Assembly: GCF_000026545.1 (NCBI RefSeq)
Contig: NC_011601.1
Origin: Escherichia coli O127:H6 str. E2348/69
GTDB lineage: Bacteria > Pseudomonadota > Gammaproteobacteria > Enterobacterales > Enterobacteriaceae
Length of the DNA stretch: 64,000 bases
Direction: 5' to 3' (one strand)
Below are positions 24,019-60,507 of the stretch, piece by piece; position 1 is the stretch's first letter, and each line of letters begins with the position of its first letter. The notes beneath the pieces were generated by a model. That model was not told where the DNA came from. It searched no databases and saw nothing but the letters and a program-made list of their open reading frames with translations. Position numbers and translations under genes: made by a program.

Positions 24019-25312
24019 TTGTTTTAACCTCATGACAGATTTAAGGATGAACAAATCCCTGCCATTGCTGGCATATAAGAATGAAACCGGATATTTATTA
24101 CGGAACTGTTTTAAAGACCTGCCGGGATTTCGATATTATCCTGGTGAATAACTTTATCGACCGGGTAACAGTTACCGGGAATTTTCTGTTCGGTTGCTGC
24201 AGTCATACACTACTGCATTGTCCTGTGAACACTGACTGCAATATCAACTGGCTCTCCGGAAACAAGAAAAACTGTCAGAACAAGCACAAATGCTGAATTC
24301 ATTGTGCACATCCTTTTGGCATCAGACGTAAACGAGCCAGCATTGAAACAATGCATATTTTATTTAATAGCTCCCGTTCTTGTTTTCTCTTGTTAATGGC
24401 ATCTTCAGTAAATACTGGGTTACTGATAGTGACACCAATTTCAAAACAACCTTCAGACGTATTAACGTTTGGTAATAACGTTTTCATTATCGCGTCCTCA
24501 ACAATGAATTTTGTGATGCAGTGCCTGGTGCCTCCAGGTGACGTTAACCAGTTAACAATTAACGCCGGATACAGAGAATCCACCCATAACACTGTTTTTG
24601 GTTTTAACTGTTCCGCGTGCGCTCAGCCGCATTCACCACATCACAAAATTCACTTTAAAAAGGGCGGCAGAGCAGTCACGGAGTAAAACTGATACCGCCA
24701 AACGTCACCAGAAAATTGATAACAGAGGGCGTTGCAGCGGGGTTGTCACTTAAGCGTATGGTCAACCTGACAACCCGGTGTCCTCAACGGGGGAAGGAAT
24801 AACCCCGCCATACTTACCGCCGCGCCATTTCGCGGATTGCCACAACCGGAAGCGCACGGTCGACGAAAATTTAACGACAGGCTATCTATGAACCAGCTAC
24901 CTCGCCGTGCGCTTTCGCGTTATGGTCTGACTTTTCAGGGAAATATCCTTTCAGTAAACTGTCAGTGCCGGATGCTCACCCGTGTCCGGCGCACGCACTC
25001 CACCTCATCCGTGGAGAACTCCTTAATTACCAACCTTAGCTTCGTTGGTTAGCTATTAACGCGGGTATGTAATCATTCTGGCAATGCTTAATGTCGCTGC
25101 TTTTTCCAGATTAGTGATATCCTGCTCCAGAGCGGACAGATTTTCAGCCTGCTTAGCCCTGGCTTCATTGGCCCATTTCAGATCCTGCGCTGCATTAATT
25201 TTCTGGCGCATCCACTCATAAAGTTCATCATCGGTATAGTCTGGCGCGATGATGACGGGTTCTCGTTTCTGCATACTGATTCCTCGCGGTGCTGTTTCGC
25301 TTATCAGCCGTT

Positions 25313-25682
25313 AGATTTTGCCGAACTGGAAAGTGCCTGTTTAAATTCGCTGAAGCTGAGAGCTTCTTCGCCTTCGGCAAGACCTTCGAAGTATTCTTCG
25401 TAAGCCTTTTCCATGATTGTGTCGAAATCCATATCACCCACCTGAATTTCTTTCCAGCCAGCGACGCGCTCCAGATTCGGTTTTAAACGTTTTGCTTTTG
25501 GTATACGTCATCGCGGTGAACGTACCGTCCTGGTTGGGGAACACGCCACATACCAGAGATTCGCTGTTGCCAAGATCGATAGTATCCATGTTGACCTCAT
25601 TTCCCCTTAACGCCGGGGTAGCGGAACTGTTTGCTGAGAACACCGTGCGGTGTCTTGATGGATCGTAATTTAGTTTTCTCAT
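25313..25682 (-). pseudogene. Phage early-region ORF apparently split by a frameshift
   Basis: Two adjacent minus-strand reading frames (25434-25682 and one ending near 25313) read coherently only if a frameshift occurs near 25490-25510. Confidence 0.4.
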
Positions 25683-25780
25683 GAATATTGATCAAGTGCT
25701 TTTGATGATAAAACTCAATATTTAATGCAAAATAAAGCCAATACATTGAAATGTAAGGCTTTAAAATTTGTGAAGGGGGG

Positions 25781-26188
25781 TTATTGATGTTTGTTACGTT
25801 TGCGAGCTTCTAGTAGCTCGGTGAATAGGCGATTAAAATTCTCAACGCGGGCACGGAGTTCGCTGATTTGTGCTTGCTGCTCTGATTTTGGAAGTGCGCG
25901 ATACAATCGCAACATCTCCAACTCATCTTCCGATAAGTCTAAGGCGCTGTTGAGTGCAACTGGTGGATCTGGTGTTTTATCCTCGTCACCAAACAGTATC
26001 CAAGTTGGTGAACATTGCAATACCTCAGCCAGGCGATGCAAATTTTGCCCGCGCGGGGCTGTATGGTCGCTTTCCCATAGTGAAATTGATGAGCCAGATA
26101 CGCCAGCAGCTTTGCTTAAATCGTTTTGACTTAAACCAACCTGTTTGCGTCTTTCTCTAATTCGTTGACCTAAAGTTTTCTCGTTCAT
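25781..26188 (-). CDS. Prophage repressor, XRE-family HTH (RacR/CI-like), no S24 peptidase domain
   Basis: 135 aa; N-terminal HTH (LGQRIRERRKQVGLSQNDLSKAAGVSGSSISLWE); divergent from the cro-like gene. Confidence 0.8.
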   Translation of the reverse strand: MNEKTLGQRIRERRKQVGLSQNDLSKAAGVSGSSISLWESDHTAPRGQNLHRLAEVLQCSPTWILFGDEDKTPDPPVALNSALDLSEDELEMLRLYRALPKSEQQAQISELRARVENFNRLFTELLEARKRNKHQ

Positions 26189-26209
26189 ATTTAGATATCT
26201 TAATAACCC

Positions 26210-26239
26210 TTGACTTGAGATTCCTTGAGTGATTACTAT
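26210..26239 (+). promoter_or_regulatory. Candidate rightward early promoter/operator region (PR-like)
   Basis: TTGACT (26210-26215), 18-bp spacer, TACTAT (26234-26239); repeated CCTTGA operator-like motifs; RBS ggagg before the ATG at 26266. Confidence 0.4.
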
Positions 26240-26265
26240 TGAGAAAACTCAACTTTGGAGGGGTG

Positions 26266-26493
26266 ATGTTTAAATCAGACGTAATTAATTTTTATGGGAC
26301 GAAAGCCAAAGTAGCGAAAGCTGCTGGTGTTGATCCATCTGCTGTTTCTCAATGGGGGGAACTGGTTCCTGAAGGTCGCGCGATGCGCCTGCAAGAGGCA
26401 TCCGGCGGGGAACTTCAGTACGACCCCAAAGTTTATGACGAATATCGTAAGGCAAAGCGGGCGGGGCGGTTGAACAATGAAAATCACCCCTGA
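26266..26493 (+). CDS. Cro/YdaS-like small DNA-binding protein
   Basis: MFKSDVINFYGTKAKVAKAAGVDPSAVSQWGELVPEG... HTH; first gene rightward of the repressor; the upstream TTG at 26239 lacks an RBS. Confidence 0.7.
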   Translation: MFKSDVINFYGTKAKVAKAAGVDPSAVSQWGELVPEGRAMRLQEASGGELQYDPKVYDEYRKAKRAGRLNNENHP

Positions 26494-27028
26494 ACAGGTT
26501 TGTGAGGCTCTGGATGCCTGGGTATGCCGACCAGGAATGACACAGGAGCAGGCGACGATATTAATCACGGAAGCATTCTGGGCTCTGAAAGAACGCCCGA
26601 ACATCGATGTTCAACGCGTCACGTTTAATGATGGCGAGGTTGATCAACGGGCGCTGTGCGTTAACCGGGTGAAGATATTCGAACGCTGGAAAGCTATCGA
26701 CACCAGGGATAAGCGGAAAAAATTCACGGCGCTGATTCCGGCAATTATGGAGGCTATCCGAATTAGTGATTTCAGGCTGTATCGTGAGATCAGTGATGGA
26801 AAAAGCATTACGTACATGATCGCCGGATTAAACAAAGAATATGGCGATGTGGTGGAGTCCGGGCTGCTTTTTGCGGATCCATCTGTTGTGGAACGTGAGA
26901 CTGACGAGCTTATAGAAAAAGCTATTGCTTTCAAGCATGCGTATCGTCAGCAATATCAATATTACTTTGCAGATAAACAAATGTCTGCCAGGGGTTCGTA
27001 TGAGTATCGATGCACTACGATGGGCTAA
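26477..27028 (+). CDS. YdaT-like protein (CII-position gene)
   Basis: 183 aa; segment ALIPAIMEAIRISDFRLY resembles Rac-prophage YdaT as recalled; follows the cro-like gene as in Rac racR-ydaS-ydaT. Confidence 0.55.
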   Translation: MKITPEQVCEALDAWVCRPGMTQEQATILITEAFWALKERPNIDVQRVTFNDGEVDQRALCVNRVKIFERWKAIDTRDKRKKFTALIPAIMEAIRISDFRLYREISDGKSITYMIAGLNKEYGDVVESGLLFADPSVVERETDELIEKAIAFKHAYRQQYQYYFADKQMSARGSYEYRCTTMG

Positions 27029-28040
27029 AAAGGTGAAAACCGGCAGTTCATCCAGTAAGTCTGTATTGACCTGGCTTGCTGATATGTGCGGTGCCGATTT
27101 GTGTGCATACCCGTCTGTATCTGCACTGGCAGAAGTAACGGAACTGAACAAAAAGACTGTGCAGGACAGCTTACGACACCTGATGGAGATTGGGTTAATT
27201 GTTGATACCGGTGAGAGAAAAGGCAGAACAAAGCAAATTGTGGTGTACCGACTTATCGGTGTAGAAGAAAGTGTTGCCGAGCCTGAATACACCCAAAAAC
27301 GGGAGTCTTTAAAGGTGGGTAAAATCGGTGCTGTTAATAAAAACAGTACCGAAAATGGTTATGTTTCAGCACAAAACAGACCCAAAAACGGAACTCTTAG
27401 CTGCATGGAAAATAACCAAAGACACCCAAATTTTCCATCAAAGACACCCAAAAACGGATCACGGAACCCAAAGGAACCCAAAGAGCTAAACCCCACACAT
27501 AACGCACGCGAGAGTGCTCCGACCAGTGAGCAGAAAGTTTTGTCGTTACAGGCTGCACCTCCTGTATTCCTGGATGGCCTGAGCGAACCCATCGAAAAAT
27601 TTCCGATGACCGATAGCTGGTATCCGTCACGGGATTTTCGACGACGGGCTGCGTTGTGGGGGATGGCTTTGCCGGAGACAGAATTCACACCTGCTGAACT
27701 TGCCGCCTTCCGGGACTACTGGGCTGCTGAGGGGAAAGTGTTTACGCAGATTCAGTGGGAGCAGAAATTCGCCCGTCACGTAAATCACGTCAGGGCGCAG
27801 GTTAAACCAGTCAGCAAGGGGGTAAACCATGCAGCAGCACCAGGTGACACCGCATCACGGGCAGTTCAGGAAATTCGGGCAGCACGTGAGCAGTGGGAAC
27901 GTGAAAACGGATTTATCAGCGACGGAAACGGCCTGGAAGCTGTGGGAACTCATGGGGGAGGTTTATTCGAACCGCTGGACCCAGAAGAACGGGGCCGCAC
28001 CTTCGAAGCTCTGGATTGCACAGATTGGTGCGATGACTGA
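27000..28040 (+). CDS. Replication initiation protein (O-like / primosomal) with N-terminal winged-helix domain
   Basis: MSIDALRWAKKV...SVSALAEVTELNKKTVQDSLRHLMEIGLIV HTH; immediately upstream of the P-like gene. Confidence 0.55.
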   Translation: MSIDALRWAKKVKTGSSSSKSVLTWLADMCGADLCAYPSVSALAEVTELNKKTVQDSLRHLMEIGLIVDTGERKGRTKQIVVYRLIGVEESVAEPEYTQKRESLKVGKIGAVNKNSTENGYVSAQNRPKNGTLSCMENNQRHPNFPSKTPKNGSRNPKEPKELNPTHNARESAPTSEQKVLSLQAAPPVFLDGLSEPIEKFPMTDSWYPSRDFRRRAALWGMALPETEFTPAELAAFRDYWAAEGKVFTQIQWEQKFARHVNHVRAQVKPVSKGVNHAAAPGDTASRAVQEIRAAREQWERENGFISDGNGLEAVGTHGGGLFEPLDPEERGRTFEALDCTDWCDD

Positions 28041-28494
28041 GCAGAAAATCCGACAGGTCTGCCGCCAGTGCATGGACCGCTGCCGGGCGGGTGAAACATG
28101 GCCTCCGGACCTGGCTGAGTTTGTGGCGCTGATTTCTGAAAGCGGAGCCAATCCATTCGGTCTGACGGTGGATGCCGTGATGGAGGAGTACCGTCGCTGG
28201 CGCAACGAGTCCTGGCGATACGACGGGAGCGATAAATACCCGTGGTCTCAGCCTGTGCTGTATCACATTTGCCTCGAGATGCGTTCAAAGGGGATTGAGC
28301 GGCAGATGACCGAAGGGGAGTTAAAACGGCTTGCAGAACGGCAGCTGACGAAATGGGCAAAGCATGTTAGTAACGGCCTGAGTGTTCCGCCAGTCCGGCG
28401 ACAACTGGCGGCACCCAAACGCCCGTCGGGGCCAACGCCAATTGAGTTGCTGAAACAGGAATATGAACGCCGGAAAGCGGCTGGGCTTGTCTGA
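27952..28494 (+). CDS. Replication protein P-like helicase loader
   Basis: Colinear similarity to lambda P C-terminal half as recalled (YPWS..., ...GELKRLAERQL..., ...KWAKHVSNGLSVPPV); start uncertain (27829, 27952 or 28033). Confidence 0.6.
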   Translation: MGEVYSNRWTQKNGAAPSKLWIAQIGAMTEQKIRQVCRQCMDRCRAGETWPPDLAEFVALISESGANPFGLTVDAVMEEYRRWRNESWRYDGSDKYPWSQPVLYHICLEMRSKGIERQMTEGELKRLAERQLTKWAKHVSNGLSVPPVRRQLAAPKRPSGPTPIELLKQEYERRKAAGLV

Positions 28495-29240: not shown

Positions 29241-30083
29241 ATGAGGAAAAAATCGTTTGGACGTTGCCCGTTTGATTTCGACGAAGATGTAAAAAAAATA
29301 GCCGCGATAAATAAATATATCCATGCGAAATTTGAGAGGCATAAAAATAAAATAGATAACCTAAAGGGGGTGGAACAAAAATTGATGGTTTTACATTACT
29401 TTAATGTACTGAATGAACTTAGTAATCAGGCTATATTTTCTTTGAGTACCGGAGCCTTTTCAGCATCGGAAGTATTAACTAGAGTTATAATGGAACAGGC
29501 TGCCAATCAATTTTATATAGCAATTGATGATGGAAAAAATGCACAAGCATTACTCAAGGGTAGTAAGAAATTAGTTCATAGTAATGGGAAACGGTGGCTG
29601 GAGTGTTTAAAATCCAAAGAAATGACTAATCCAGCAGCAGATGAAAGGATTCGTATCGGAAAAGAGCTAACTGATATGTTTAATAGATTGTGGCCAAATA
29701 CACCTGAATATCCTGGAACCAAAAAGCTTTTCGAAGTAATTGGCTGGGAAACACACTATCATGCCTATTACGTCCCTCTTTGTGATTCAATACATACATT
29801 CTCTGATGATATGGCAAATATAGTATCTCTATATAATGCAATCCAAAGCGATAAAACTACTGCTATCGAACTCACTCTTGCAGTTAAACAAGAAAATAAA
29901 CGGCTGGCAATTTATAATGTCGTAATTGCTATTGGCCTGCGGTGTGAGGCCTTAGTAAATGTATTTAACTCTTTAGGTTATCGAGATATTATAACTGAAA
30001 TGGCGCCAACAATAGATGCAGTCAACCAGATTATAATTCGATATGATGATTTCGAACATTCCAGAATTTTTTATTGTCAATAA
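29241..30083 (+). CDS. Uncharacterised 280-aa protein in AT-rich accessory island
   Basis: Clean ORF with RBS aggagg 8 nt upstream; visibly AT-rich codon usage; no motif I can assign. Confidence 0.7.
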   Translation: MRKKSFGRCPFDFDEDVKKIAAINKYIHAKFERHKNKIDNLKGVEQKLMVLHYFNVLNELSNQAIFSLSTGAFSASEVLTRVIMEQAANQFYIAIDDGKNAQALLKGSKKLVHSNGKRWLECLKSKEMTNPAADERIRIGKELTDMFNRLWPNTPEYPGTKKLFEVIGWETHYHAYYVPLCDSIHTFSDDMANIVSLYNAIQSDKTTAIELTLAVKQENKRLAIYNVVIAIGLRCEALVNVFNSLGYRDIITEMAPTIDAVNQIIIRYDDFEHSRIFYCQ

Positions 30084-31121: not shown

Positions 31122-32495
31122 ATGAAAAGACTATATTATACCCATCATGATAGTCGAACCTTAAAACTTGCTATAGAAGGTGATGTTTCTGATAATGCGA
31201 ATATTTTTACAGTAATTGTAGGTAAAAATGGCGTTGGAAAAAGCAGATTGTTATCTCAGATTGCTAAAGACTGTATTCAAGATATTCATTTCTTGAAAAC
31301 TTTTAATCCATTATTTGACAGAGAAATAACACCAAAGTTAATTGCCGTATCTACCAGCCCATTCGATAAATTCCCTCCAGGGCGTAGGTCATTAAATCAC
31401 CAAAGGAAAGAAAATAATTATCGCTATGTGGGTATGCGTGGAGAAGGCCCCTTCGGCGTATCAAATGCCGTATCCCTTTTATCTTCAGCAGCGAGAGGTT
31501 GGCTAGAGAAACTTGCTTATTCAGAAAATCCTGCAAATTTACTCGATGTTTTTCATTCTATTGATTTTGAGCCCCATATAGAGTTTGTATTTAAACCAAC
31601 TTACAACGGACCGGACACTCCTGACTATAACTTCATTGGTGTATATTCAGATGAGATATTAACGGAAGTTAAGGAGTTATATTTAAAATACAATATAAAA
31701 ATTGACAGGAAGAATATTGAGAGTCTCTTAAAGTTAAACTCCGAATCACGTCATGATATTTACGAAGCACTGGTTGAAATTAATCGATTTGAACCTGAAC
31801 GTAGGGCTGTAACCTTGTCAGTCGATTTTACCAATGGTGAAACATTGGTTGGCTCGACTTATGCGAATAATTATTTTTCTAGATCAATTCTTAAACTTAT
31901 GAACGCTGGCTTCATGAGATTGATGGATATGCGACTCATAAAAAAAAGCTATGGTCCCATGTCACTTAAACGTGCGAGCTCGGGAGAACAATGTTTATTA
32001 GTGATGTTGCTTGGAATTGCAGGGCATATAACTGATGGTTCTATAATACTAATTGATGAACCGGAAATAAGCTTGCATCCTCGATGGCAGGAAGAGTTTA
32101 TCATTATGTTAACAAAAGCATTTTTAACTTACTCAGGTTGTCAATTCATAATTGCAACTCATTCACCACAAATAATATCCAATTTGCCGAATAAAGGTTG
32201 TTATATAACATCTTTGTCGAAAAGTTATCTTTATAAAGCAAAATACTTTAGCAACCGGTCTGCAGACTATCAACTTGCGGAACTATTTGATGCCCCTGGC
32301 ATTATGAATGAATACATTGCCAGATTAGCTTTCAATTTACTTTCAAAAGTTAAGACTGCTAAGTTAGTAACAGATGATAATTGGCGTGAATTAAAACAAC
32401 TCCAGCTTCTCCTTGAAAACGTTAATAGTAATGACCCTATTAATGAACTCGTAAATTCCGTATCTCAGGTGTGTGAAATTTATGCCAAAAATTAA
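31122..32495 (+). CDS. ABC/AAA_21-type ATPase, Septu PtuA-like
   Basis: Walker A VIVGKNGVGKSRLL; Walker B + D-loop IILIDEPEISLHP; H-loop IIATHSPQII; 457 aa; overlaps downstream HNH gene. Confidence 0.75.
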   Translation: MKRLYYTHHDSRTLKLAIEGDVSDNANIFTVIVGKNGVGKSRLLSQIAKDCIQDIHFLKTFNPLFDREITPKLIAVSTSPFDKFPPGRRSLNHQRKENNYRYVGMRGEGPFGVSNAVSLLSSAARGWLEKLAYSENPANLLDVFHSIDFEPHIEFVFKPTYNGPDTPDYNFIGVYSDEILTEVKELYLKYNIKIDRKNIESLLKLNSESRHDIYEALVEINRFEPERRAVTLSVDFTNGETLVGSTYANNYFSRSILKLMNAGFMRLMDMRLIKKSYGPMSLKRASSGEQCLLVMLLGIAGHITDGSIILIDEPEISLHPRWQEEFIIMLTKAFLTYSGCQFIIATHSPQIISNLPNKGCYITSLSKSYLYKAKYFSNRSADYQLAELFDAPGIMNEYIARLAFNLLSKVKTAKLVTDDNWRELKQLQLLLENVNSNDPINELVNSVSQVCEIYAKN

Positions 32496-33117
32496 AAATC
32501 CAATTAGATTCAGCGCAGAGTCATTAGATATTATTGAGAAAAAATTGTCTTCTCCAGATTTTAAGCATACCAACTGGGGAGATGATGATTTGCAAGTTCT
32601 CCGTGCAGAAATTAGAAATCATTACAGAGAAGAACAAAAGCTAGAATGTGTATATTGTCATGAGCCTATTGGGGTAAGAGCTGCACAAGCTGCTCCTATA
32701 GAGCATATTGTGCCAAAATCTCAATATCTATGTTTTATTTTTGAACCTAAGAATCTATGTGTAGTATGTCCTGACTGCAATGAATTCAAAGGTAAAAATG
32801 AAGTGTTATTTGAACCCGTAATAAATGGGGGGCGGCGCAAAAACTATCCAACTGCATCTGCATCATTTCGCATCGTTCATCCACATATAGATGATTATGA
32901 GATGCATATTATAAAAGCAAATCGTGTTTATGTGGACAAAACACCTAAAGGGCACTATACCATTGGAATATGTAAACTAAATAGATTTTTTCATTATTTT
33001 GGGATGTGTGATGAATTTGTTAATGATGCAAAAATTGCTGAGGCAAATGAAAATTTTTTCAAAAAAGGTAGTATTACTACTAATGAATTATTGGATGATG
33101 ACATTCATTTGATTTAA
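32473..33117 (+). CDS. HNH endonuclease, Septu PtuB-like
   Basis: HNH/zinc motif CVYCHEP...IEHIVPKS...CVVCPDCNEFKGKN; 214 aa; start overlaps ATPase gene end by 23 nt. Confidence 0.75.
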   Translation: MKFMPKIKNPIRFSAESLDIIEKKLSSPDFKHTNWGDDDLQVLRAEIRNHYREEQKLECVYCHEPIGVRAAQAAPIEHIVPKSQYLCFIFEPKNLCVVCPDCNEFKGKNEVLFEPVINGGRRKNYPTASASFRIVHPHIDDYEMHIIKANRVYVDKTPKGHYTIGICKLNRFFHYFGMCDEFVNDAKIAEANENFFKKGSITTNELLDDDIHLI

Positions 33118-33371
33118 CTATGAATTATTATATTGTAAAGTAATCAGGTAAGATATGTTAGACAGTGAGACTATTGCCTTACAGAATTCATTATTCTTAT
33201 GGATCGCCTTTCTGACTGATTTCATATTGGCGGGGTAACGGGAGTTAAGTAGAATGGCTGCGGGTGCTTGAGGCTATCTGTCTCAGGCATGAACACCAAA
33301 GGCAGATAGAGAAAAGCCCCAGTTAACATTACGCGTCCTGCAAGACGCTTAACATTAATCTGAGGCCAATT

Positions 33372-34460
33372 TCATGCTAGACACATGTAGGTTAGCCTCT
33401 TACGTGCCGGAAGGCAAGGAGATGTATGGGTCCACCACATATTGCAATTTTTATTCTCTTTTAAAATATATTCCACGGGCGTCATTAGTGCGAGCGCCTT
33501 GTGGGGTCTTTTGCTGTTATACAGCACCAGATATTCCGCCAGCTTCTGGTTAAATAGCGCCAGATCTTCAAAGAGTAAAATCTCATTAAATTCAATAAAC
33601 TGCTCTCTTAACGTCCGGTTAAAACGTTCACAGATAGCGTTCATTTTTGGCGTGTAGGGATAGGTCCAGAGGTGTTTGATAGCGGCTTCCTGCAGCGTTT
33701 TGTCGAAGTTTCCCAGGAACTCTTTTCCGTTATCTGTGATTATCTGGCTGATACCGACCGGGAACAACCGGGCTGCGCGGCTGAAGAAGTGATTGACGAT
33801 ATCACTGTTGAGTGACGGCACAGCCAGCGCCAGCGCGTAATTGCTGCATTCGTCGATCATGGTGATGACATAGCGACGCAGTTCGCCCATTCTGAGCTCA
33901 ATGGCGTCCATCCCAATGAGCTCACCTGTCTTTACCGGGCGGTAGTGCTTTGGCCTGCGGGGTTTGGCAGACCGCTTTTTGACAAGCAGTGCCTTCCCCC
34001 GCGATCCCAGACGCACAGGTATCATCCGCATTTTATCATGTGCGGCAGCGATCATTCTGCCGATGGTGGAAACACTCGGACAGGCCAGATAGCGCTGTTC
34101 GCACCAGGGCTTCAGGCGAACAAAAATCTGCTCTTTACCGAGGTTCGGCAGCTCTGTCCTGAGGCGTCGAATCTCTTTCAGCACATCGGGATGCCAGTGT
34201 TTTTTTCGTCGCACCAGAGGTGCCTTACTGTGCGGGATTAGCCCCTCAGGTCCTTCCTTGTTCAGTAACTGACGCCACCAGTAAAGCGTGCGGCAGGACA
34301 CGCCAAAGGCTTCAGAAGCTGCAGAAATACCGTGTTTATCCCAGAAGTGCAGAGCCTTCATTCTCATTGTTGCTATATCAGCCATCACTGAAAGCCTCAA
34401 CGCATAATCGGCCGTTTGGTAGTACTTAGGATAGCCAACCATCAGATGCTGCATTTGCAT
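33372..34460 (-). CDS. IS481-family DDE transposase (integrase-core/rve domain)
   Basis: 362 aa; N-terminal HTH (...CRTLYWWRQ...), DDE core, C-terminal ...YNSKRPHKALALMTPVEY typical of rve transposases. Confidence 0.7.
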   Translation of the reverse strand: MQMQHLMVGYPKYYQTADYALRLSVMADIATMRMKALHFWDKHGISAASEAFGVSCRTLYWWRQLLNKEGPEGLIPHSKAPLVRRKKHWHPDVLKEIRRLRTELPNLGKEQIFVRLKPWCEQRYLACPSVSTIGRMIAAAHDKMRMIPVRLGSRGKALLVKKRSAKPRRPKHYRPVKTGELIGMDAIELRMGELRRYVITMIDECSNYALALAVPSLNSDIVNHFFSRAARLFPVGISQIITDNGKEFLGNFDKTLQEAAIKHLWTYPYTPKMNAICERFNRTLREQFIEFNEILLFEDLALFNQKLAEYLVLYNSKRPHKALALMTPVEYILKENKNCNMWWTHTSPCLPARKRLTYMCLA

Positions 34461-34490
34461 AGTGCAATCTCCCCTTACTTATCCGGAGGC
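33372..34490 (-). mobile_element. IS481-family insertion sequence (approximate limits)
   Basis: Single-ORF DDE transposase; imperfect terminal inverted repeats ccggaaggcaaggagat (about 33406) and revcomp of atctccccttacttatccgg (about 34467-34486); exact ends not resolved. Confidence 0.6.
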
Positions 34491-34531
34491 AATTGCAATA
34501 TCTCTGTGAACTTACACAGGAGAAGCAGGCT

Positions 34532-34687
34532 ATGAAGCAGCAAAAGGCGATGTTAATCGCCCTGATCGTCATCTGTTTAACCGTCATAGTGACGACACTG
34601 GTAACGAGGAAAGACCTCTGCGAGGTACGAATCCGAACCGGCCAGACGGAGGCCGCTGTCTTCACAGCTTACGAACCTGAGGAGTAA
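34532..34687 (+). CDS. hok: Hok/Gef-family type I toxin
   Basis: MKQQKAMLIALIVICLTVIVTTLVTRKDLCEVRIRTGQTEAAVFTAYEPEE, near-identical in pattern to Hok/Gef peptides as recalled. Confidence 0.9.
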   Translation: MKQQKAMLIALIVICLTVIVTTLVTRKDLCEVRIRTGQTEAAVFTAYEPEE

Positions 34688-34756
34688 GAGACCCGGCGAG
34701 GGAGAAATCCCTCGCCACCTCTGATGTGGCAGGCATCCTCAACGCACCCGCACTTA

Positions 34757-34777
34757 ACCCGCTTCGGCGGGTTTTTG
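34757..34777 (+). terminator. Rho-independent terminator downstream of hok
   Basis: cccgcttcggcggg stem-loop followed by a T-run. Confidence 0.7.
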
Positions 34778-34903
34778 TTTTTATTTTCAACGCGTTTGAA
34801 GTTCTGGACGGCGCCGGAATAGAATCAAAAATACTTAAGTAGCGCGCAGGGATAAGAGGGATGGTCCCTTAAAGGGGAGAGCTAATTATCCGGAAGGATT
34901 CTG

Positions 34904-35155
34904 ATGATGAACATCGAAGAACTGCGTAAAATTTTTTGTGAAGATGGCCTCTATGCTGTGTGCGTTGAAAATGGAAATCTTGTTAGTCATTACCGCATTA
35001 TGTGTTTGCGAAAGAATGGGGCTGCGTTAATTAATTTTGTGGATGGTCGAGTGACAGACGGATTTATCTTGCGCGAAGGTGAGTTTGTCACTTCATTACA
35101 GGCACTGAAAGAGATCGGAATAAAAGCAGGCTTTTCAGCTTTTGCAGAAGAATAA
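34904..35155 (+). CDS. Hypothetical phage protein (83 aa)
   Basis: ORF with plausible spacing in the nin region; no recognisable motif. Confidence 0.45.
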   Translation: MMNIEELRKIFCEDGLYAVCVENGNLVSHYRIMCLRKNGAALINFVDGRVTDGFILREGEFVTSLQALKEIGIKAGFSAFAEE

Positions 35156-38138: not shown

Positions 38139-39188
38139 ATGATTAATACTGTAAAAATATCCAGTTGTGAGTTAATCAACGCTGATTGCCTGGAATTTAT
38201 CCAGACCTTACCGGAAAACTCTGTCGATCTGATAGTCACAGACCCGCCATACTTTAAAGTGAAGCCCGAGGGCTGGGATAACCAGTGGGAGGGCGACGAT
38301 GATTACCTGAAATGGCTGGACCAGTGTCTGGCGCAGTTCTGGCGGGTACTGAAGCCTGCCGGAAGTCTTTACCTGTTCTGTGGTCATCGCCTGGCATCTG
38401 ACACCGAAATCATGATGCGTGAGCGCTTTAATGTGCTGAACCACATTATCTGGGCGAAGCCGTCCGGACGCTGGAACGGGTGCAATAAGGAAAGTCTGCG
38501 GGCGTATTTTCCGGCAACAGAGCGCATTCTGTTTGCAGAACATTATCAGGGACCGTATCGCCCGAAAGATGATGGCTATGTGGCACAGGGGCGCGAGCTA
38601 AAACAGCACGTCATGGCCCCGCTGATTTCTTACTTTCGTGATGCGCGTAAATCACTGGGAATAACGTCAAAACAGATAGCGGAAGCCACCGGAAAGAAAA
38701 ACATGGCTTCGCACTGGTTTGGTACCAGTCAGTGGCAGTTACCGAACGAGGGTAATTACAACAAATTGCAGGCGTTGTTTGCGCGTGTTGCGGCAGAAAA
38801 ACATCAGCGCGGGGAACTGGAAAAGCCACACCACCAGCTGGTCAGCACATACAGTGAGCTGAACCGGCAGTATACGGAACTGCTGAGTGAATATAAAAAT
38901 TTGCGGCGGTATTTCGGTGTGACGGCGCAGGTTCCGTACACCGATGTCTGGACGCATAAACCGGTGCAGTACTATCCAGGGAAACATCCGTGCGAAAAAC
39001 CGGCAGAAATGCTGCAGCAGATAATCAACGCGAGCAGTCGTCCGGGAGACCTGGTTGCAGATTTTTTTATGGGTTCAGGTTCAACGGTAAAAGCGGCGAT
39101 GGCACTGGGGCGTTGTGCGATTGGTGTTGAGCTGGAGACAGGACGTTTTGAACAGACAGTCAGGGAAGTTCAGGATTTAATCGTTTGA
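38139..39188 (+). CDS. Orphan DNA methyltransferase (N6-adenine/N4-cytosine, beta class)
   Basis: Motif IV TDPPY (LIVTDPPYF) near N-terminus and AdoMet-binding FxGSGST (FFMGSGSTV) near C-terminus; no adjacent restriction gene. Confidence 0.85.
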   Translation: MINTVKISSCELINADCLEFIQTLPENSVDLIVTDPPYFKVKPEGWDNQWEGDDDYLKWLDQCLAQFWRVLKPAGSLYLFCGHRLASDTEIMMRERFNVLNHIIWAKPSGRWNGCNKESLRAYFPATERILFAEHYQGPYRPKDDGYVAQGRELKQHVMAPLISYFRDARKSLGITSKQIAEATGKKNMASHWFGTSQWQLPNEGNYNKLQALFARVAAEKHQRGELEKPHHQLVSTYSELNRQYTELLSEYKNLRRYFGVTAQVPYTDVWTHKPVQYYPGKHPCEKPAEMLQQIINASSRPGDLVADFFMGSGSTVKAAMALGRCAIGVELETGRFEQTVREVQDLIV

Positions 39189-39237: not shown

Positions 39238-39313
39238 GGCCCTTTAGCTCAGTGGTGAGAGCGAGCGACTCATAATCGCCAGGTCGCTGGTTCAAATCCA
39301 GCAAGGGCCACCA
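39238..39313 (+). tRNA. ileZ: tRNA with CAU anticodon, Ile2-like (ileZ-type of lambdoid phages)
   Basis: Hand-folded cloverleaf: acceptor GGCCCTT/AAGGGCC, D-arm GCTC..GAGC, anticodon loop CTCATAA, T-arm GCTGG TTCAAAT CCAGC, CCA end; resembles E. coli tRNA-Ile2 as recalled. Confidence 0.85.
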
Positions 39314-39320
39314 TCACATA

Positions 39321-39397
39321 CCGCCATTAGCTCATCGGCAGAGAGCGTCAGCTTTCGAAACTGGCTGTGTGGGGCCCGGGTCCCCGATGGCAATCCA
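39321..39397 (+). ncRNA. Degenerate tRNA-like element (possible pseudo-tRNA, argN-like position)
   Basis: U8A9 + D-arm GCTCATCGGCAGAGAGC and CCA end, but mismatched acceptor, 9-nt anticodon loop and atypical T-loop. Confidence 0.3.
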
Positions 39398-39410
39398 TTA
39401 TTTGCATTAT

Positions 39411-39487
39411 GCGTTGTTAGCTCAGCCGGACAGAGCAATTGCCTTCTAAGCAATCGGTCACTGGTTCGAATCCAGTACAACGCGCCA
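39411..39487 (+). tRNA. argO: tRNA-Arg (anticodon UCU)
   Basis: Cloverleaf: acceptor GCGTTGT/ACAACGC, anticodon stem ATTGC/GCAAT with loop CTTCTAA, T-arm ACTGG TTCGAAT CCAGT, CCA end. Confidence 0.9.
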
Positions 39488-39951: not shown

Positions 39952-40979
39952 ATACATATCTGGATTATCACCTGTTACGGTAAAAAGTGATTGCTTACTG
40001 TTTTTGTGAATGGCATTGCAGCAGCCGGATAATGTCAGTGCTGGCTGACTGTGTACTGGTGGCGGGTGTGGTGGTTGTTGCTTTCCCGTTGCTGAAAAAG
40101 AAAACGCCAGACTGTTAGCCGGAGAAATTTTTAAATACTTCACAATTCAGGCGGTTGACTGTTGTCTGGTTTGCGGGGAGTTTGTTAAAAGAAACTGGCA
40201 TGGTGAATCCACCTGTGCGGAGGGGCAATCAGCGAGTAGGTATATGGGATAATCGCGGATTCAGGTGCTGGTACTGAATTCACCGGGAGGCACCCGGCAC
40301 CATGCAATGGCACATAGCGCCACTCTCCAGCCCCTCTCCGGAGGGGCTGTTTATATTGATTTTGTCAGATGTGAGTAAACTCCTTATGGACTTTGTTGTT
40401 TTAGTCCATAAGGACATATTTGCAGAGTGCAACGGTTATTAAAGCATTCATTCAATACGTTATCTGTATTTGTAGGGCATTCCTGGCTGTTTTTGATTAA
40501 ATTCCAGAATGTTTTATTGAATGGTACTACGTTGTAAATGGTTACAGGTAGCACTTTGTTATTGAGCATGATACCTGTGTGAGTCAGTGTAAATATACTT
40601 TCAGGAGGTAAGAAAGCATCCGATTGATACCAGATTATTAATTTTATTTTACTCCATATGACTGAAAAAGATATTCCGCATGATGGCTGGATAACTGTAT
40701 CAATCACAATCCACTTCATTTAGTTTCCTTGTTTATGCCTTGCTGGTGATGTTCTGAAAAGTATAAATGATATTTTTGATTGTAAACCATAGAGCAGAAT
40801 TATTTTTCTGATGTTGTTTATTGTTTATTTAAATGCAGGGTGGTTTATATCTCGTCTTGTAGTTTATCCATGCATATCTGCTTGATGATGAGGTTTTTAT
40901 TTAAGGTATGGTTTTGTGTTTTTTCTGTATTACATGTCAGGTATTTTAAAGAATTATTTTTCAGATGGTGGAAAGAACC

Positions 40980-43085: not shown

Positions 43086-44663
43086 CCCCCAGCTAGGCTC
43101 TGTCTCTTATACACAAATCCCCACCCGGGGATTTGTGATGTCTGTCAGTCTGCTTTAGGGGGACTCTTTCCATCCGGTAGTTTCCTTCCTCCCCGGCAGC
43201 GATTTTTTGAACTTTTTCCTCACCCGTTGATCTTCTCTTATATTTCATTTTCTTCGGGTCTGTTATGGTACTTTCTGATTGTTATTCATGGGCTAACGAG
43301 CAGTTTGGACATGCCCGTCTCGGTGATCCGCGTCGTACACGACGCCTTGTGTCACTGGCCTCTTCTCTCGCTCAGCATGCAGGTCTTTCTATTGTGAAAT
43401 CATCCCAGTCCACTGCTCAGGTTGAAGGTGCGTACCGCCTGATACGTAACCCGTCTGTGTCCCCGCAAGCCATTGCCGAAGCCGGATTTACCGCCACTGT
43501 AAGGGCATGTGAGGCTCATCCGCTGCTCCTCGCGCTGGAAGACACCACCACCATTAACTTCAGTCACAGTACGGCATCTGATGACCTGGGGAATACCACC
43601 ACTAACCCGAAGACGCGCGGGCTGCTGGCTCACTCTGTCCTGATGTACGCCCCCGACAGCGCCCTGCCAGTCGGTCTTATCGAACAGCAGCGCTGGAGTC
43701 GTGCCACGGACACCTACGGTGTTAAGCACCAGCGAAAAGAACGTCCCTATGAAGAAAAAGAAAGTTACCGCTGGCAGCAGGCTTCGGAGCGCATGGCCGA
43801 ACGGCTGGGGGAGATACAGAAACGGGTAATCACTGTCTGTGACCGGGAAGCGGATATCTGGCATTACCTGCATTATAAAGTCAGCCACGGGCAGCGCTTC
43901 GTGGTGCGTGCAGCACAGAATCGCCGGCTGGAAGAAGCACCCGGCAAGCTCTTCGAACTGCCGGAAGTCCTGGCAACCGCGGGAAGCCACACGCTGAATG
44001 TGATGCAAAAAGGCGGGCGGGCAGCCCGCCAGGCCCGGATGTTCATCAGTTACAGCGAAGTCAGCATAAAAAATCCCGACAACAGCGGCCAGGCGCTCCC
44101 GCTCACGTATGTCTGTTGCCGGGAGCAGGCAGAGGACGGCGCCTGCTGGCATCTGCTGACGTCAGAAAAAGTGGCGAGTGCCGCCGATGCGCGACGTATC
44201 GTCAGCCATTACGAGCGACGCTGGCTGATAGAGGAATACCACAAGGCGTGGAAAAGTGGTGGTACATGTGTGGAATCGCTGCGAATGCAGACCCGGGATA
44301 ACCTCGAGCGCATGGTGGTTATCAAGGCGTTTATCGCGGTGCGGGTGCTGGGCCTGCGGCAGGGCGGTATCAGTGAAGAAACACAAAATGACAGCTGTGA
44401 GAAAATACTGACGCCGACAGAGTGGAAACTGCTGTGGGTTAAGCTGGAAGGAAAACCGCTTCCGTCACAGATGCCGACACTGAAATGGGCCTGTCTGAAA
44501 CTGGCGAAACTGGGGCGATGGCATGACAGCAAACGCACCGGTCGCCCCGGTTGGGTAGTCATGTGGGATGGCTGGTTCAGACTTCAGGATATGGTTGAGG
44601 GTTACCTGGTGATGAAGTCTCTTGATCAGGAGATCTGATCAAGAGACAGAGCTAGGCTGGGGG
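43086..44663 (+). mobile_element. IS4-family (IS50-like) insertion sequence
   Basis: Imperfect terminal inverted repeats CCCCCAGCTAGGCTCTGTCTCTT (43086) and revcomp of aagagacagagctaggctggggg (44639-44663), containing the CTGTCTCTT motif of IS50 ends; Tn5-Tnp-like transposase inside. Confidence 0.8.
43265..44638 (+). CDS. IS50-like DDE transposase
   Basis: 457 aa, colinear with Tn5 transposase as recalled (LGDPRRTRRLV..., ...YERRWLIEEYHKAWKSG..., ...NLERMV...). Confidence 0.85.
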   Translation: MVLSDCYSWANEQFGHARLGDPRRTRRLVSLASSLAQHAGLSIVKSSQSTAQVEGAYRLIRNPSVSPQAIAEAGFTATVRACEAHPLLLALEDTTTINFSHSTASDDLGNTTTNPKTRGLLAHSVLMYAPDSALPVGLIEQQRWSRATDTYGVKHQRKERPYEEKESYRWQQASERMAERLGEIQKRVITVCDREADIWHYLHYKVSHGQRFVVRAAQNRRLEEAPGKLFELPEVLATAGSHTLNVMQKGGRAARQARMFISYSEVSIKNPDNSGQALPLTYVCCREQAEDGACWHLLTSEKVASAADARRIVSHYERRWLIEEYHKAWKSGGTCVESLRMQTRDNLERMVVIKAFIAVRVLGLRQGGISEETQNDSCEKILTPTEWKLLWVKLEGKPLPSQMPTLKWACLKLAKLGRWHDSKRTGRPGWVVMWDGWFRLQDMVEGYLVMKSLDQEI

Positions 44664-59952: not shown

Positions 59953-60507
59953 CGGACCATAACAATTTATAATCTGCTGGCCGGAACTAATGAATTTATT
60001 GGTGAAGGTGACGCATATATTCCGCCTCATACAGGTCTGCCAGCAAACAGTACCGATATTGCACCACCAGATATTCCTGCTGGCTTTGTGGCTGTTTTCA
60101 ACAGTGATGAGGCATCGTGGCATCTCGTTGAAGACCATCGGGGTAAAACGGTTTATGACGTAGCGTCAGGGGACGAGTTATTTATTTCTGAACTCGGTCC
60201 GTTACCGGAAAATGTTACCTGGTTATCGCCGGAAGGGGAGTTTCAGAAGTGGAACGGCACAGCCTGGGTGAAAGATGCAGAAGCAGAAAAACTGTTCCGG
60301 ATCCGGGAGGCGGAAGAAACAAAAAACAACCTGATGCAGGTAGCCAGTGAGCATATTGCGCCACTTCAGGATGCGGTAGATCTGGAAATCGCAACGGAGG
60401 AAGAAAACTCGTTGCTGGAAGCCTGGAAGAAGTATCGGGTGTTGCTGAACCGTGTTGATACATCAACTGCACCTGATATTGAGTGGCCGACTTCACCTGC
60501 AGAGTAA
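59953..60507 (+). pseudogene. tfa: Tail fibre assembly protein (tfa) lacking its first codons and start
   Basis: [87 protein letters not shown]... colinear with lambda Tfa from about residue 10; homology ends abruptly at the IS2 remnant. Confidence 0.8.

Follow-up and report, generated by a model that had tools for sequence, protein, structure and literature searches.

Does the divergent trio of a leftward repressor gene and two overlapping rightward genes in a prophage of Escherichia coli E2348/69 control a pair of toxins, as had been thought of the Rac prophage, or is it a conventional phage immunity region, and how might its repressor be relieved? An earlier note on the 64,000-nucleotide stretch of DNA analyzed here (the window) had favored the first view, likening the trio to racR-ydaS-ydaT. 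The evidence presented below makes it highly probable that the module is instead an ordinary, already annotated immunity switch (lysis versus lysogeny) belonging to a defective lambdoid prophage of Qin/mEp460 type. Judged from its sequence, the nearest model for the trio is dicA-dicC-ydfX of Qin together with the dicBF operon and rem, rather than the Rac genes, since the repressor is a DicA-family protein without likeness to RacR and the Cro-like protein belongs to the DicC/P22 Cro family. The module is in this sense already explained by known systems.

Setting of the immunity region

The module sits in a defective lambdoid (lambda-like) prophage between potC and potB. The three open reading frames, read earlier as a divergent repressor, Cro-like and CII-position module, are all found where they had been placed (Table 1), and the RefSeq annotation of E2348/69 labels the surrounding genes ydfA/B/C, dicB, DicC and 'toxin YdaT family protein'. 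Because the module matches annotated genes of E2348/69 at 100% identity and curated family models are passed above their cut-offs, a chance arrangement can be rejected.

Table 1. Features of the immunity region and of rem, in window coordinates
Feature	Position	Strand	Basis or remark
Prophage repressor, DicA family, 135 aa	25781..26188	minus	NCBIfam, Pfam, PDB, AlphaFold2, Foldseek
Cro analogue DicC, 75 aa	26266..26493	plus	NCBIfam, Pfam, PDB
CII-position regulator, 183 aa, distant YdaT-family member	26477..27028	plus	PHROGs, Pfam, hhalign, AlphaFold2, Foldseek
Putative operator closest to dicC, perfect palindrome TTGAGAAAACTCAA	26239..26252		Position of K-12 Oc
Putative middle operator TTGAGATTCCTTGA	26215..26228		Conserved in mEp460_ev081
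Putative operator beside repressor start codon TTTAGATATCTTAA	26190..26203		Conserved in mEp460_ev081
Putative operator ATGATAAAACTCAA	25705..25718		Upstream of -35 of leftward dicB-operon promoter
Putative operator TTTAGTTTTCTCAT	25669..25682		Between -35 and -10 of leftward dicB-operon promoter
Promoter-like site for dicC (PR analogue), TTGACT-18-TACTAT	26210..26239	plus	Consensus scan; function inferred
Putative dicB-operon promoter (PL analogue), TTGATC-17-TAAATT	25667..25695	minus	Alignment with K-12 TTGACC-17-TAATCT
Possible site for the CII-like protein TTGAACAATGAAAATCAC	26470..26487		Overlaps that protein's start codon; compare Rac YdaT-box
Leftward operon ydfA-ydfB-ydfC-DicF-dicB	24299..25589	minus	RefSeq; repressor gene upstream on same strand
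ydfA	25434..25589	minus	RefSeq
DicF sRNA	24662..24713	minus	Rfam, 76.7 bits (gathering score 48)
dicB	24299..24487	minus	DicB 100% identical to K-12 DicB
rem, 83 aa	34904..35155	plus	8.7 kb right of (downstream from) the immunity switch

A short repressor of the DicA family

The full-length alignment (1-135 of 135) of the repressor with the NCBIfam model for DicA (NF007257) reaches 238.3 bits, where the cut-off is 101. Identity is 54% with K-12 DicA and 96.3% with the repressor of the phage mEp460_ev081, and the protein matches P22 C2 in the PDB (1adr) at E 2e-15. Pfam places only HTH_3, HTH_31 and HTH_19 domains in it, at residues 6-65, and does not detect Peptidase_S24 even at E<=10. In the AlphaFold2 model (pLDDT 84.7) a five-helix HTH domain (residues 6-69) and a low-confidence linker precede helices 87-98 and 101-134, the roughly 65 residues after the HTH domain being modeled as these two helices. 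Foldseek searches with this model return HTH proteins exclusively, with the P22 c2 N-domain on top; no S24 peptidase domain is matched, and the sole LexA entry listed, 2kpj, covers the HTH region alone. The DicA-family members listed are about 130-159 aa long, mostly 133-135, and none of them carries a precomputed S24 domain. The short C-terminal part of the E2348/69 repressor has neither that peptidase, with its Ser/Lys dyad, nor an Ala-Gly cleavage site. A cryptic S24 domain is ruled out by Pfam, by length, by the AlphaFold2 model and by Foldseek, in agreement with the earlier description of a helical C-terminus and no autocleavage domain, and a repressor of the modeled architecture cannot cleave itself. 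The proposed kinship with RacR fared differently: blastp gives E=2, profile comparison by hhalign of the DicA-family alignment with RacR gives a probability of 0.7%, and the two together rule out a RacR homologue.

The rightward genes as Cro and CII analogues

The Cro-like protein scores 167.6 bits with the NCBIfam DicC model (NF007282; cut-off 130) and matches P22 Cro in the PDB (1rzs) at E 1.9e-12. Pfam assigns it to P22_Cro at 1.3e-17 and far more weakly to YdaS_toxin at 2.8e-4, and its blastp alignment with Rac YdaS reaches 33% over 43 aa, so that of the earlier designation 'Cro/YdaS-like' the first half stands and the second is only marginal. It is 94.7% identical to DicC of mEp460_ev081 and 70% identical to K-12 DicC, from which its N-terminal HTH half is divergent while the C-terminal half is nearly identical. 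An alternative TTG start at 26239, which would give an ORF of 84 aa, was dropped in favor of the ATG at 26266, since the DicC model aligns from 1 to 75 of 75 and a GGAGG site lies before the ATG.

The third gene overlaps both of its neighbors, dicC over 17 nt and the O-like gene over 29 nt. Its 183-aa product matches phrog_163, 'CII-like transcriptional activator', at 1.8e-41 and Pfam YdaT_toxin at 3e-5, and K-12 YdfX is 88% identical to it over 93 aa; it is the full-length form of YdfX, which is truncated to 96 aa in K-12. A sequence-only search of the PDB gave marginal matches (E 0.15-0.18), and the relation to YdaT emerged by profile and fold comparison: hhalign against Rac YdaT gives a probability of 98.5% and E 3.5e-15 over 111 columns at 22% identity, and Foldseek with the AlphaFold2 model (pLDDT 83.8) places YdaT 8bt1 (three chains) and 3c4r in the top four PDB positions, the next match having E 0.5. 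Profile and predicted fold show the protein to be a true, if distant, homologue of YdaT, whose family combines a POU-like HTH domain with a long oligomerization helix; the likeness to YdaT had been proposed earlier. The possible site over its start codon recalls the Rac YdaT-box, ATGATTCATGAAAATCAA, which also overlaps a start codon (PMC11879457); it departs from TTGATT-N6-AATCAA at three positions and is the only such site in the locus, which is weak evidence, and across the window sites of this kind are about as frequent as chance predicts (40 found, 39 expected). The CP-933P/Rac YdaT operator motif is not enriched in the window, and dicC and the CII-like gene contain no conspicuous short-range inverted repeats.

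Do these similarities make the rightward pair YdaS/YdaT-type toxin genes, and is it the chief task of the repressor to silence them? The homology to YdaT is real, both Pfam toxin families are detected, and cells that express Rac YdaT ectopically form filaments and die (PMC11879457). Nevertheless, the repressor lacks RacR homology, P22 Cro and DicC fit the Cro-like protein far better than YdaS does, and the gene order, the overlaps and the O/P-like replication genes downstream are those of a PR operon. Moreover, the toxic-pair reading of YdaS and YdaT is itself disputed: they have been argued and shown to be Cro and CII analogues, not a toxin-antitoxin system (PMC5917428; PMC8630535; PMC9986795), and are likewise treated in PMC11879457. 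In K-12 the documented toxicity under DicA control maps to the opposite side, to the leftward dicB/dicF operon (PMC10448788; PMC3441716). We consider a toxin module of this type unlikely here.

Putative operators of a heteroimmune allele

The intergenic DNA on the two sides of the repressor gene contains operator-like 14-bp palindromes with a 5-4-5 pattern and the consensus TTGAG-N4-CTCAA. Five occur in 268 bp against 0.12 expected, and none of 20,000 shuffles reaches five, an enrichment that is partly post hoc in that the consensus was taken from one of the five sites. The K-12 counterparts at matching positions are TTAGY-N4-RCTAA sites, among them the experimentally bound Oc, TTGTTAGTCATAACTAACAA, at which DicA binding has been demonstrated (PMC3441716). 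The corresponding E2348/69 palindrome lies directly next to the -10 of the dicC promoter. On the leftward side, the palindrome at 25669-25682 aligns with the K-12 site TGTTAGTCATGGCTAATC, located between TTGACC and TAATCT; the putative dicB-operon promoter itself scores under the scanner threshold (8/12) and is weak by consensus. In the K-12 dicA-dicC gap, two of three sequence-predicted operators (Om and Oa) showed no DicA binding in vivo (PMC3441716). Since the five TTGAG-N4-CTCAA palindromes stand where the K-12 operators are spelled differently, the E2348/69 imm segment is, as far as its sequence indicates, a heteroimmune allele relative to K-12 Qin. The same allele is common to the functional phage mEp460_ev081 and to 796 of 5426 complete E. 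coli genomes.

The arrangement suggests how the switch would operate. The repressor is probably a dimer held together by its helical C-terminus, and it would bind the palindromes at three sites in the repressor-dicC gap and at two on either side of the leftward promoter's -35. Binding would silence two arms, on the right dicC together with the CII analogue of the YdaT family and the replication genes of O/P type, and on the left the ydfABC-dicF-dicB operon, the products of which block cell division. Derepression would most likely come about by the small antirepressor Rem combined with stochastic switching of a bistable DicA/DicC circuit, as in K-12 Qin.

An intact leftward operon in a damaged prophage

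Both outputs of the leftward operon, DicF and DicB, are intact in the E2348/69 prophage, and the ydfD pseudogene comes next after dicB. With dicB and dicF intact, conditional essentiality of the repressor is likely in the EPEC strain E2348/69 and would bear on gene-essentiality screens there.

The rest of the prophage is heavily damaged: most head and tail genes are deleted, IS481-family, ISEc13 and IS200C elements have inserted, and there are several pseudogenes. Such losses might suggest that the module, too, is decaying, inactive DNA of a dead prophage. Against this, all three ORFs are intact, as are dicB, DicF and rem, the repressor is 96% identical to that of a functional phage in which the operator-like sites are conserved, and the equally defective Qin prophage of K-12 retains a functioning DicA/DicC/Rem circuit (PMC10448788), which together make an inert remnant very improbable. 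Given that the prophage is defective, the remaining role of the immunity switch may be only the silencing of dicBF and immunity.

Rem and the question of SOS control

The antirepressor gene anticipated elsewhere in the prophage has a counterpart in rem. The product shares 96.4% identity with K-12 Rem and 100% with Rem of mEp460_ev081, and the flanks of the gene are about 99% conserved. Ahead of the gene come a terminator at 34756-34773 and then, at 34796-34825, a promoter-like TTGAAG-18-TAGAAT. K-12 Rem is an antirepressor of DicA that derepresses dicBp 165-fold (PMC10448788) in a test system confined to K-12 DicA, which shares 54% of its residues with the E2348/69 repressor; by analogy, we infer that Rem would act on the latter as well. 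Among E. coli phage records, those encoding a DicA-type repressor and those encoding a Rem homologue form one and the same set of 15. Family searches give Rem no antirepressor label: PADLOC has no match, and PHROGs yields only phrog_340, a function-unknown family.

How Rem itself would be induced bears on whether the module is indirectly under SOS control, through a LexA-repressed promoter driving the antirepressor as in the Gifsy prophages. The repressor is of the short type without self-cleavage, a class placed by Lemire et al. alongside the Gifsy repressors (PMC3121763), the discovery of Rem began from the Gifsy antirepressor GfoA (PMC10448788), and the window contains two LexA-like 20-mers, at 27329-27348 (15/20) and 38147-38166 (16/20). 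Yet no LexA-like 20-mer was found near or upstream of rem, and none lies in the 215 bp from the terminator after hokD to rem, a stretch that is invariant in K-12, mEp460_ev081 and the E2348/69 window. The candidates elsewhere were rejected by their positions: the box at 27329 is among the origin iterons within the O-like gene, that at 38147 is within the start of a methyltransferase gene, and an exact CTGT-N8-ACAG sequence at 34504, just before hokD, is the junction of the IS481-family insertion and is missing in K-12 and mEp460_ev081. Exact matches to CTGT-N8-ACAG number two in the 64 kb, which is not unusual, as 9 of 100 shuffles get that many. The signal that induces Rem is stated as unknown in PMC10448788. 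The search suggested earlier for antirepressor genes or LexA boxes has thus yielded the gene without a box before it, and SOS control of the Gifsy type appears improbable.

The conservation of Rem raises a further possibility. Rem is 96-100% identical where the repressors are only 54-56% identical, a contrast in sequence from which it might be proposed, tentatively and with somewhat more doubt than confidence, that Rem acts generally, without allele specificity, as antirepressor of heteroimmune repressors of the DicA family. If so, its target would be the conserved linker (residues 56-75, 18/20 identical) or the conserved C-terminal helices, and one apparently non-SOS signal could derepress several DicA-type prophages and dicBF inhibitors simultaneously in the same cell.

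Comparison with known systems

The identification has little consequence beyond correct annotation. The module is properly labeled an immunity region of the DicA/DicC type that carries the mEp460 allele and includes a CII-like gene of the YdaT family; it should not be labeled a toxin module of Rac type. In Pfam and PGAP, YdaS and YdaT bear 'toxin' names, which are misleading for the E2348/69 module.

The Rac racR-ydaS-ydaT genes share with it the divergent layout of repressor, Cro-position and CII-position genes and a short repressor without an S24 domain. The R-W pair in the recognition helix of Rac YdaT, R57/W58 (PMC11879457), is kept as R70 and W71, both invariant in the alignment of the E2348/69 protein. 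However, the likeness of RacR to the E2348/69 repressor is limited to being an HTH protein, YdaS is only marginally similar to the Cro-like protein, and Rac YdaT is without the extra C-terminal helices of the 183-aa protein.

The Gifsy pairs of Salmonella (GfoR/GfoA and others) also have short non-cleavable repressors, each inactivated by a small protein whose gene lies beyond the replication genes, at a distance from the immunity region (PMC3121763). Their antirepressor operons carry a LexA box, whereas rem in the E2348/69 prophage has none before it. In P22, the N-domain of c2 is 48% identical to that of the E2348/69 repressor (TM 0.95 on the target), Cro is matched by the Cro-like protein, and the operators, as here, have a 4-bp central spacer. 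P22 C2, in contrast, has a C-terminal S24 self-cleavage and oligomerization domain where the E2348/69 repressor has about 65 residues and two helices.

Qin of K-12 matches the E2348/69 module in gene order on both sides and has 5-4-5 operator-like palindromes in matching positions. The flanks are about 95% identical, but the central imm segment is divergent, or swapped, with half-sites TTAGY as opposed to TTGAG, and the CII-position gene is truncated (YdfX, 96 aa) where that of E2348/69 is full-length at 183 aa. The functional temperate phages mEp460_ev081 (LR597641.1) and HannyBb (PP925841.1) have the E2348/69 immunity allele itself, with the operator-like sites conserved. They are complete phages, unlike the defective E2348/69 prophage, and differ from it in the replication module and over the final ~20 residues of the CII-like product. 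In mEp460_ev081 the layout is as in E2348/69: int-xis-exo-ydfD-dicB...repressor-dicC-CII-like-replication-hok-rem.

Identity of the immunity region

The three ORFs that an earlier note had read as a Rac-like racR-ydaS-ydaT trio are real and lie where they had been placed, and the architecture it described, a divergent repressor gene with a Cro-sized ORF and a third gene to the right, is present. The Rac label itself does not hold: no similarity of the repressor to RacR was found by blastp (E=2) or by profile comparison (probability 0.7%). Over its full length the repressor matches the NCBIfam model "transcriptional repressor DicA" (238 bits, cut-off 101), with 54% overall identity to K-12 DicA divided among a divergent HTH (24/57), near-invariant residues 56-75 (18/20) and a moderately conserved C-terminus (32/60). 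Its N-domain is homologous to the DNA-binding domain of P22 C2 (E 2e-15; Foldseek 48% identity, TM 0.95 on target), and in its AlphaFold2 model (pLDDT 84.7) the five helices of the HTH are followed, after a linker of low confidence, by two more at residues 87-98 and 101-134.

The second gene had been called Cro/YdaS-like. The Cro part of that description is borne out: the protein scores 167.6 bits on the NCBIfam DicC model (cut-off 130), hits Pfam P22_Cro at 1.3e-17 and finds the P22 Cro structure 1rzs at 1.9e-12. Its match to Pfam YdaS_toxin is marginal (2.8e-4). A TTG start at 26239, from an automatic ORF call, was set aside; the DicC model aligns 1-75/75 from ATG 26266. For the third gene the YdaT-like assignment stands. 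The 183-aa protein matches phrog_163, "CII-like transcriptional activator" (1.8e-41), and Pfam YdaT_toxin (3e-5), its family profile finds Rac YdaT (probability 98.5%, E 3.5e-15, 111 columns, 22% identity), and among PDB entries its AlphaFold2 model (pLDDT 83.8) convincingly matches only crystal structures of YdaT, 8bt1 and 3c4r. All members of its family keep the Arg-Trp pair that marks the YdaT/CII recognition helix (R70, W71; R57/W58 in Rac YdaT, PMC11879457). Together these comparisons point to a real but distant relationship with Rac YdaT. A YdaT-box-like sequence with three mismatches covers the start codon of the gene, the same placement as in Rac, in a background where such sites occur at chance frequency. 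K-12 YdfX (96 aa, 'protein YdfX', K-12 locus L002, 2347-2637) is 88% identical to the 183-aa protein over 93 residues and is thus a truncated copy of it; since it corresponds to the N-terminal half of this YdaT-family CII-like protein, YdfX is a truncated CII analogue of Qin, the cryptic K-12 prophage.

The suggestion that the two rightward genes form a toxic pair rests on Pfam names that are disputed in the literature; YdaS acts as an analogue of Cro and YdaT as one of CII (PMC5917428; PMC8630535; PMC9986795; PMC11879457). The module is a Qin-type DicA/DicC region descended from a P22 c2/cro-like ancestor. It is an ordinary lambdoid immunity region, annotated and explained before.

Putative operators and immunity replacement

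The 14-bp 5-4-5 palindrome TTGAG-N4-CTCAA occurs once in perfect form and four times with two mismatches, and all five putative operators fall within the sole two intergenic segments around the repressor gene (268 bp total). Composition-matched shuffles predict 0.12 palindromes and 0/20,000 reach five, in a test that is partly post hoc, the motif having been taken from one of the five sites. An alignment with K-12 Qin and phage mEp460_ev081 supports the assignment independently: identity to Qin is ~95% in the flanks, and the divergent centre takes in the leftward promoter, most of the repressor gene, the intergenic region and the dicC 5' half. At the matching positions K-12 Qin instead spells its palindromes TTAGY-N4-RCTAA; one of these is Oc, TTGTTAGTCATAACTAACAA, at which DicA binding in vivo has been shown (PMC3441716). 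The pattern is that of a classical heteroimmune imm-region replacement, in accord with the differing recognition-helix residues (SGSSISLWE in the window repressor, SHVSVSQWE in K-12). The functional phages mEp460_ev081 and HannyBb carry the same allele, with repressors 96.3% identical, as do 796/5426 complete E. coli genomes.

Outputs of the switch and prophage setting

In the RefSeq annotation potC and potB flank the insertion, and the prophage genes run integrase, excisionase, 3'-5' exonuclease, ydfD (pseudogene), dicB, ydfC, ydfB, ydfA, HTH protein (the repressor), "dicB transcriptional regulator DicC", "toxin YdaT family protein", DnaT-like/O-like replication protein and P-like protein, with hokD, rem, rusA, lysis genes and a truncated late region farther right. 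Leftward, beyond the repressor, lie ydfA, ydfB, ydfC, the DicF sRNA and dicB; the last is 100% identical to K-12 dicB, and in K-12 loss of DicA leads to filamentation dependent on dicB/dicF (PMC10448788; PMC3441716). To the right come dicC, the CII-like gene and the two replication genes, O-like and P-like; iteron-like direct repeats within the O-like gene are probably the phage origin. Positions 24200-28100 are 100% identical to the EPEC E2348/69 chromosome NZ_CP059840.2.

The prophage is defective. The S49 head protease gene and the NlpC/P60 tail gene are both truncated and stand side by side with no head or tail genes between them, which indicates that most head and tail genes were deleted. 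There are three IS insertions, of which ISEc13 and IS200C lie ahead of the lysis cassette; ydfD is interrupted by an internal stop, and two further genes, for a DUF1627 protein and a second integrase, are likewise broken.

The stretch from the replication genes to the hok-rem region encodes a Septu type I pair for defence against phages, PtuA (457-aa AAA ATPase, PADLOC 1.9e-165) and PtuB (211-aa HNH nuclease, PADLOC 1.1e-83), labelled merely 'AAA family ATPase' and 'HNH endonuclease' in RefSeq. A DUF5677 protein, alone in an AT-rich stretch past the replication genes, gave no PADLOC match. The hok/sok locus is interrupted by an IS481-family transposase gene that parts the sok-like RNA region from the hokD CDS; the short interval that separates the IS from hokD holds a palindrome absent in K-12 and mEp460_ev081. 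Two LexA-like 20-mers were also seen, a good one among the iteron-like repeats and another just within the start of the prophage DNA methyltransferase gene. Three Rfam matches lie in the late prophage, and two tRNA genes were also noted.

Coordinates of the immunity region and other prophage features
Feature	Position	Strand	Remarks
Prophage	20129-63999		
DicF sRNA	24662-24713		Rfam 76.7 bits
Putative operators, 2 mismatches	25669, 25705, 26190, 26215		
Repressor gene	25781-26188	minus	135 aa
Putative operator, perfect	26239-26252		
dicC	from ATG 26266	plus	75 aa; GGAGG ahead of ATG
CII-like gene	26477-27028	plus	183 aa; overlaps preceding gene by 17 nt, following gene by 29 nt
Iteron-like repeats	27286-27482		ACACCCAAAAACGG, CAAAGACACCCAAA
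LexA-like 20-mer	27329-27348		TGCTGTTAATAAAAACAGTA; 15/20 to consensus
DUF5677 gene	29241-30083	plus	280 aa
Septu pair	31122-33117	plus	
hok/sok locus	33262-34687		
sok-like RNA region	33262-33428		Rfam sok, 112 bits
IS481-family transposase gene	33372-34460	minus	
Palindrome	34504		CTGTGAACTTACACAG
hokD CDS	34532-34687		
Terminator	34756-34773		
Promoter-like sequence	34796-34825		TTGAAG-18-TAGAAT
rem	34904-35155		96.4% identical to K-12 Rem, 100% to mEp460_ev081 Rem
LexA-like 20-mer	38147-38166		TACTGTAAAAATATCCAGTT; 16/20 to consensus, one core mismatch
tRNA genes	39238-39484		Ile, Arg
Rfam matches	40169-40358, 44643-44766, 60269-60467		sRNAs STnc100, STnc490; IS009

Induction

Pfam recognizes HTH_3-type domains alone in the repressor (residues 6-65) and no S24 peptidase, as the earlier note had claimed, and none of the listed DicA-family members (about 130-159 aa, mostly 133-135; widespread in Enterobacterales) has an S24 domain. 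From this domain content, self-cleavage of the repressor is predicted not to be possible. The antirepressor gene that had been envisaged elsewhere is found as rem, whose K-12 counterpart encodes the small DicA antirepressor. Qin-encoded Rem raises expression from dicBp, the promoter of the leftward dicB operon, 165-fold against DicA repression (Ragunathan et al. 2023, PMC10448788); the same study describes spontaneous DicC-dependent switching in about 1% of cells and notes mEp460_ev081 as a carrier of dicA, dicC, dicB, dicF and rem. The hokD-rem stretch, ~99% identical in the window, K-12 and mEp460_ev081, contains a terminator and a promoter-like sequence and no LexA-like box. A DicA-type repressor and a Rem homologue occur in exactly the same 15 E. 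coli phage records of the phage collection.

Because Rem is near-invariant while the repressors differ by 46%, we infer that Rem probably contacts the conserved linker or the C-terminal helices of the repressor. At full length, the Foldseek analogues of the repressor are SinR (paired with SinI) and a phage repressor of the SPbeta type (paired with AimX). The analogy proves nothing, but it would fit the repressor, as each of these two proteins is an HTH domain joined to a helical domain that is bound by a small antagonist.
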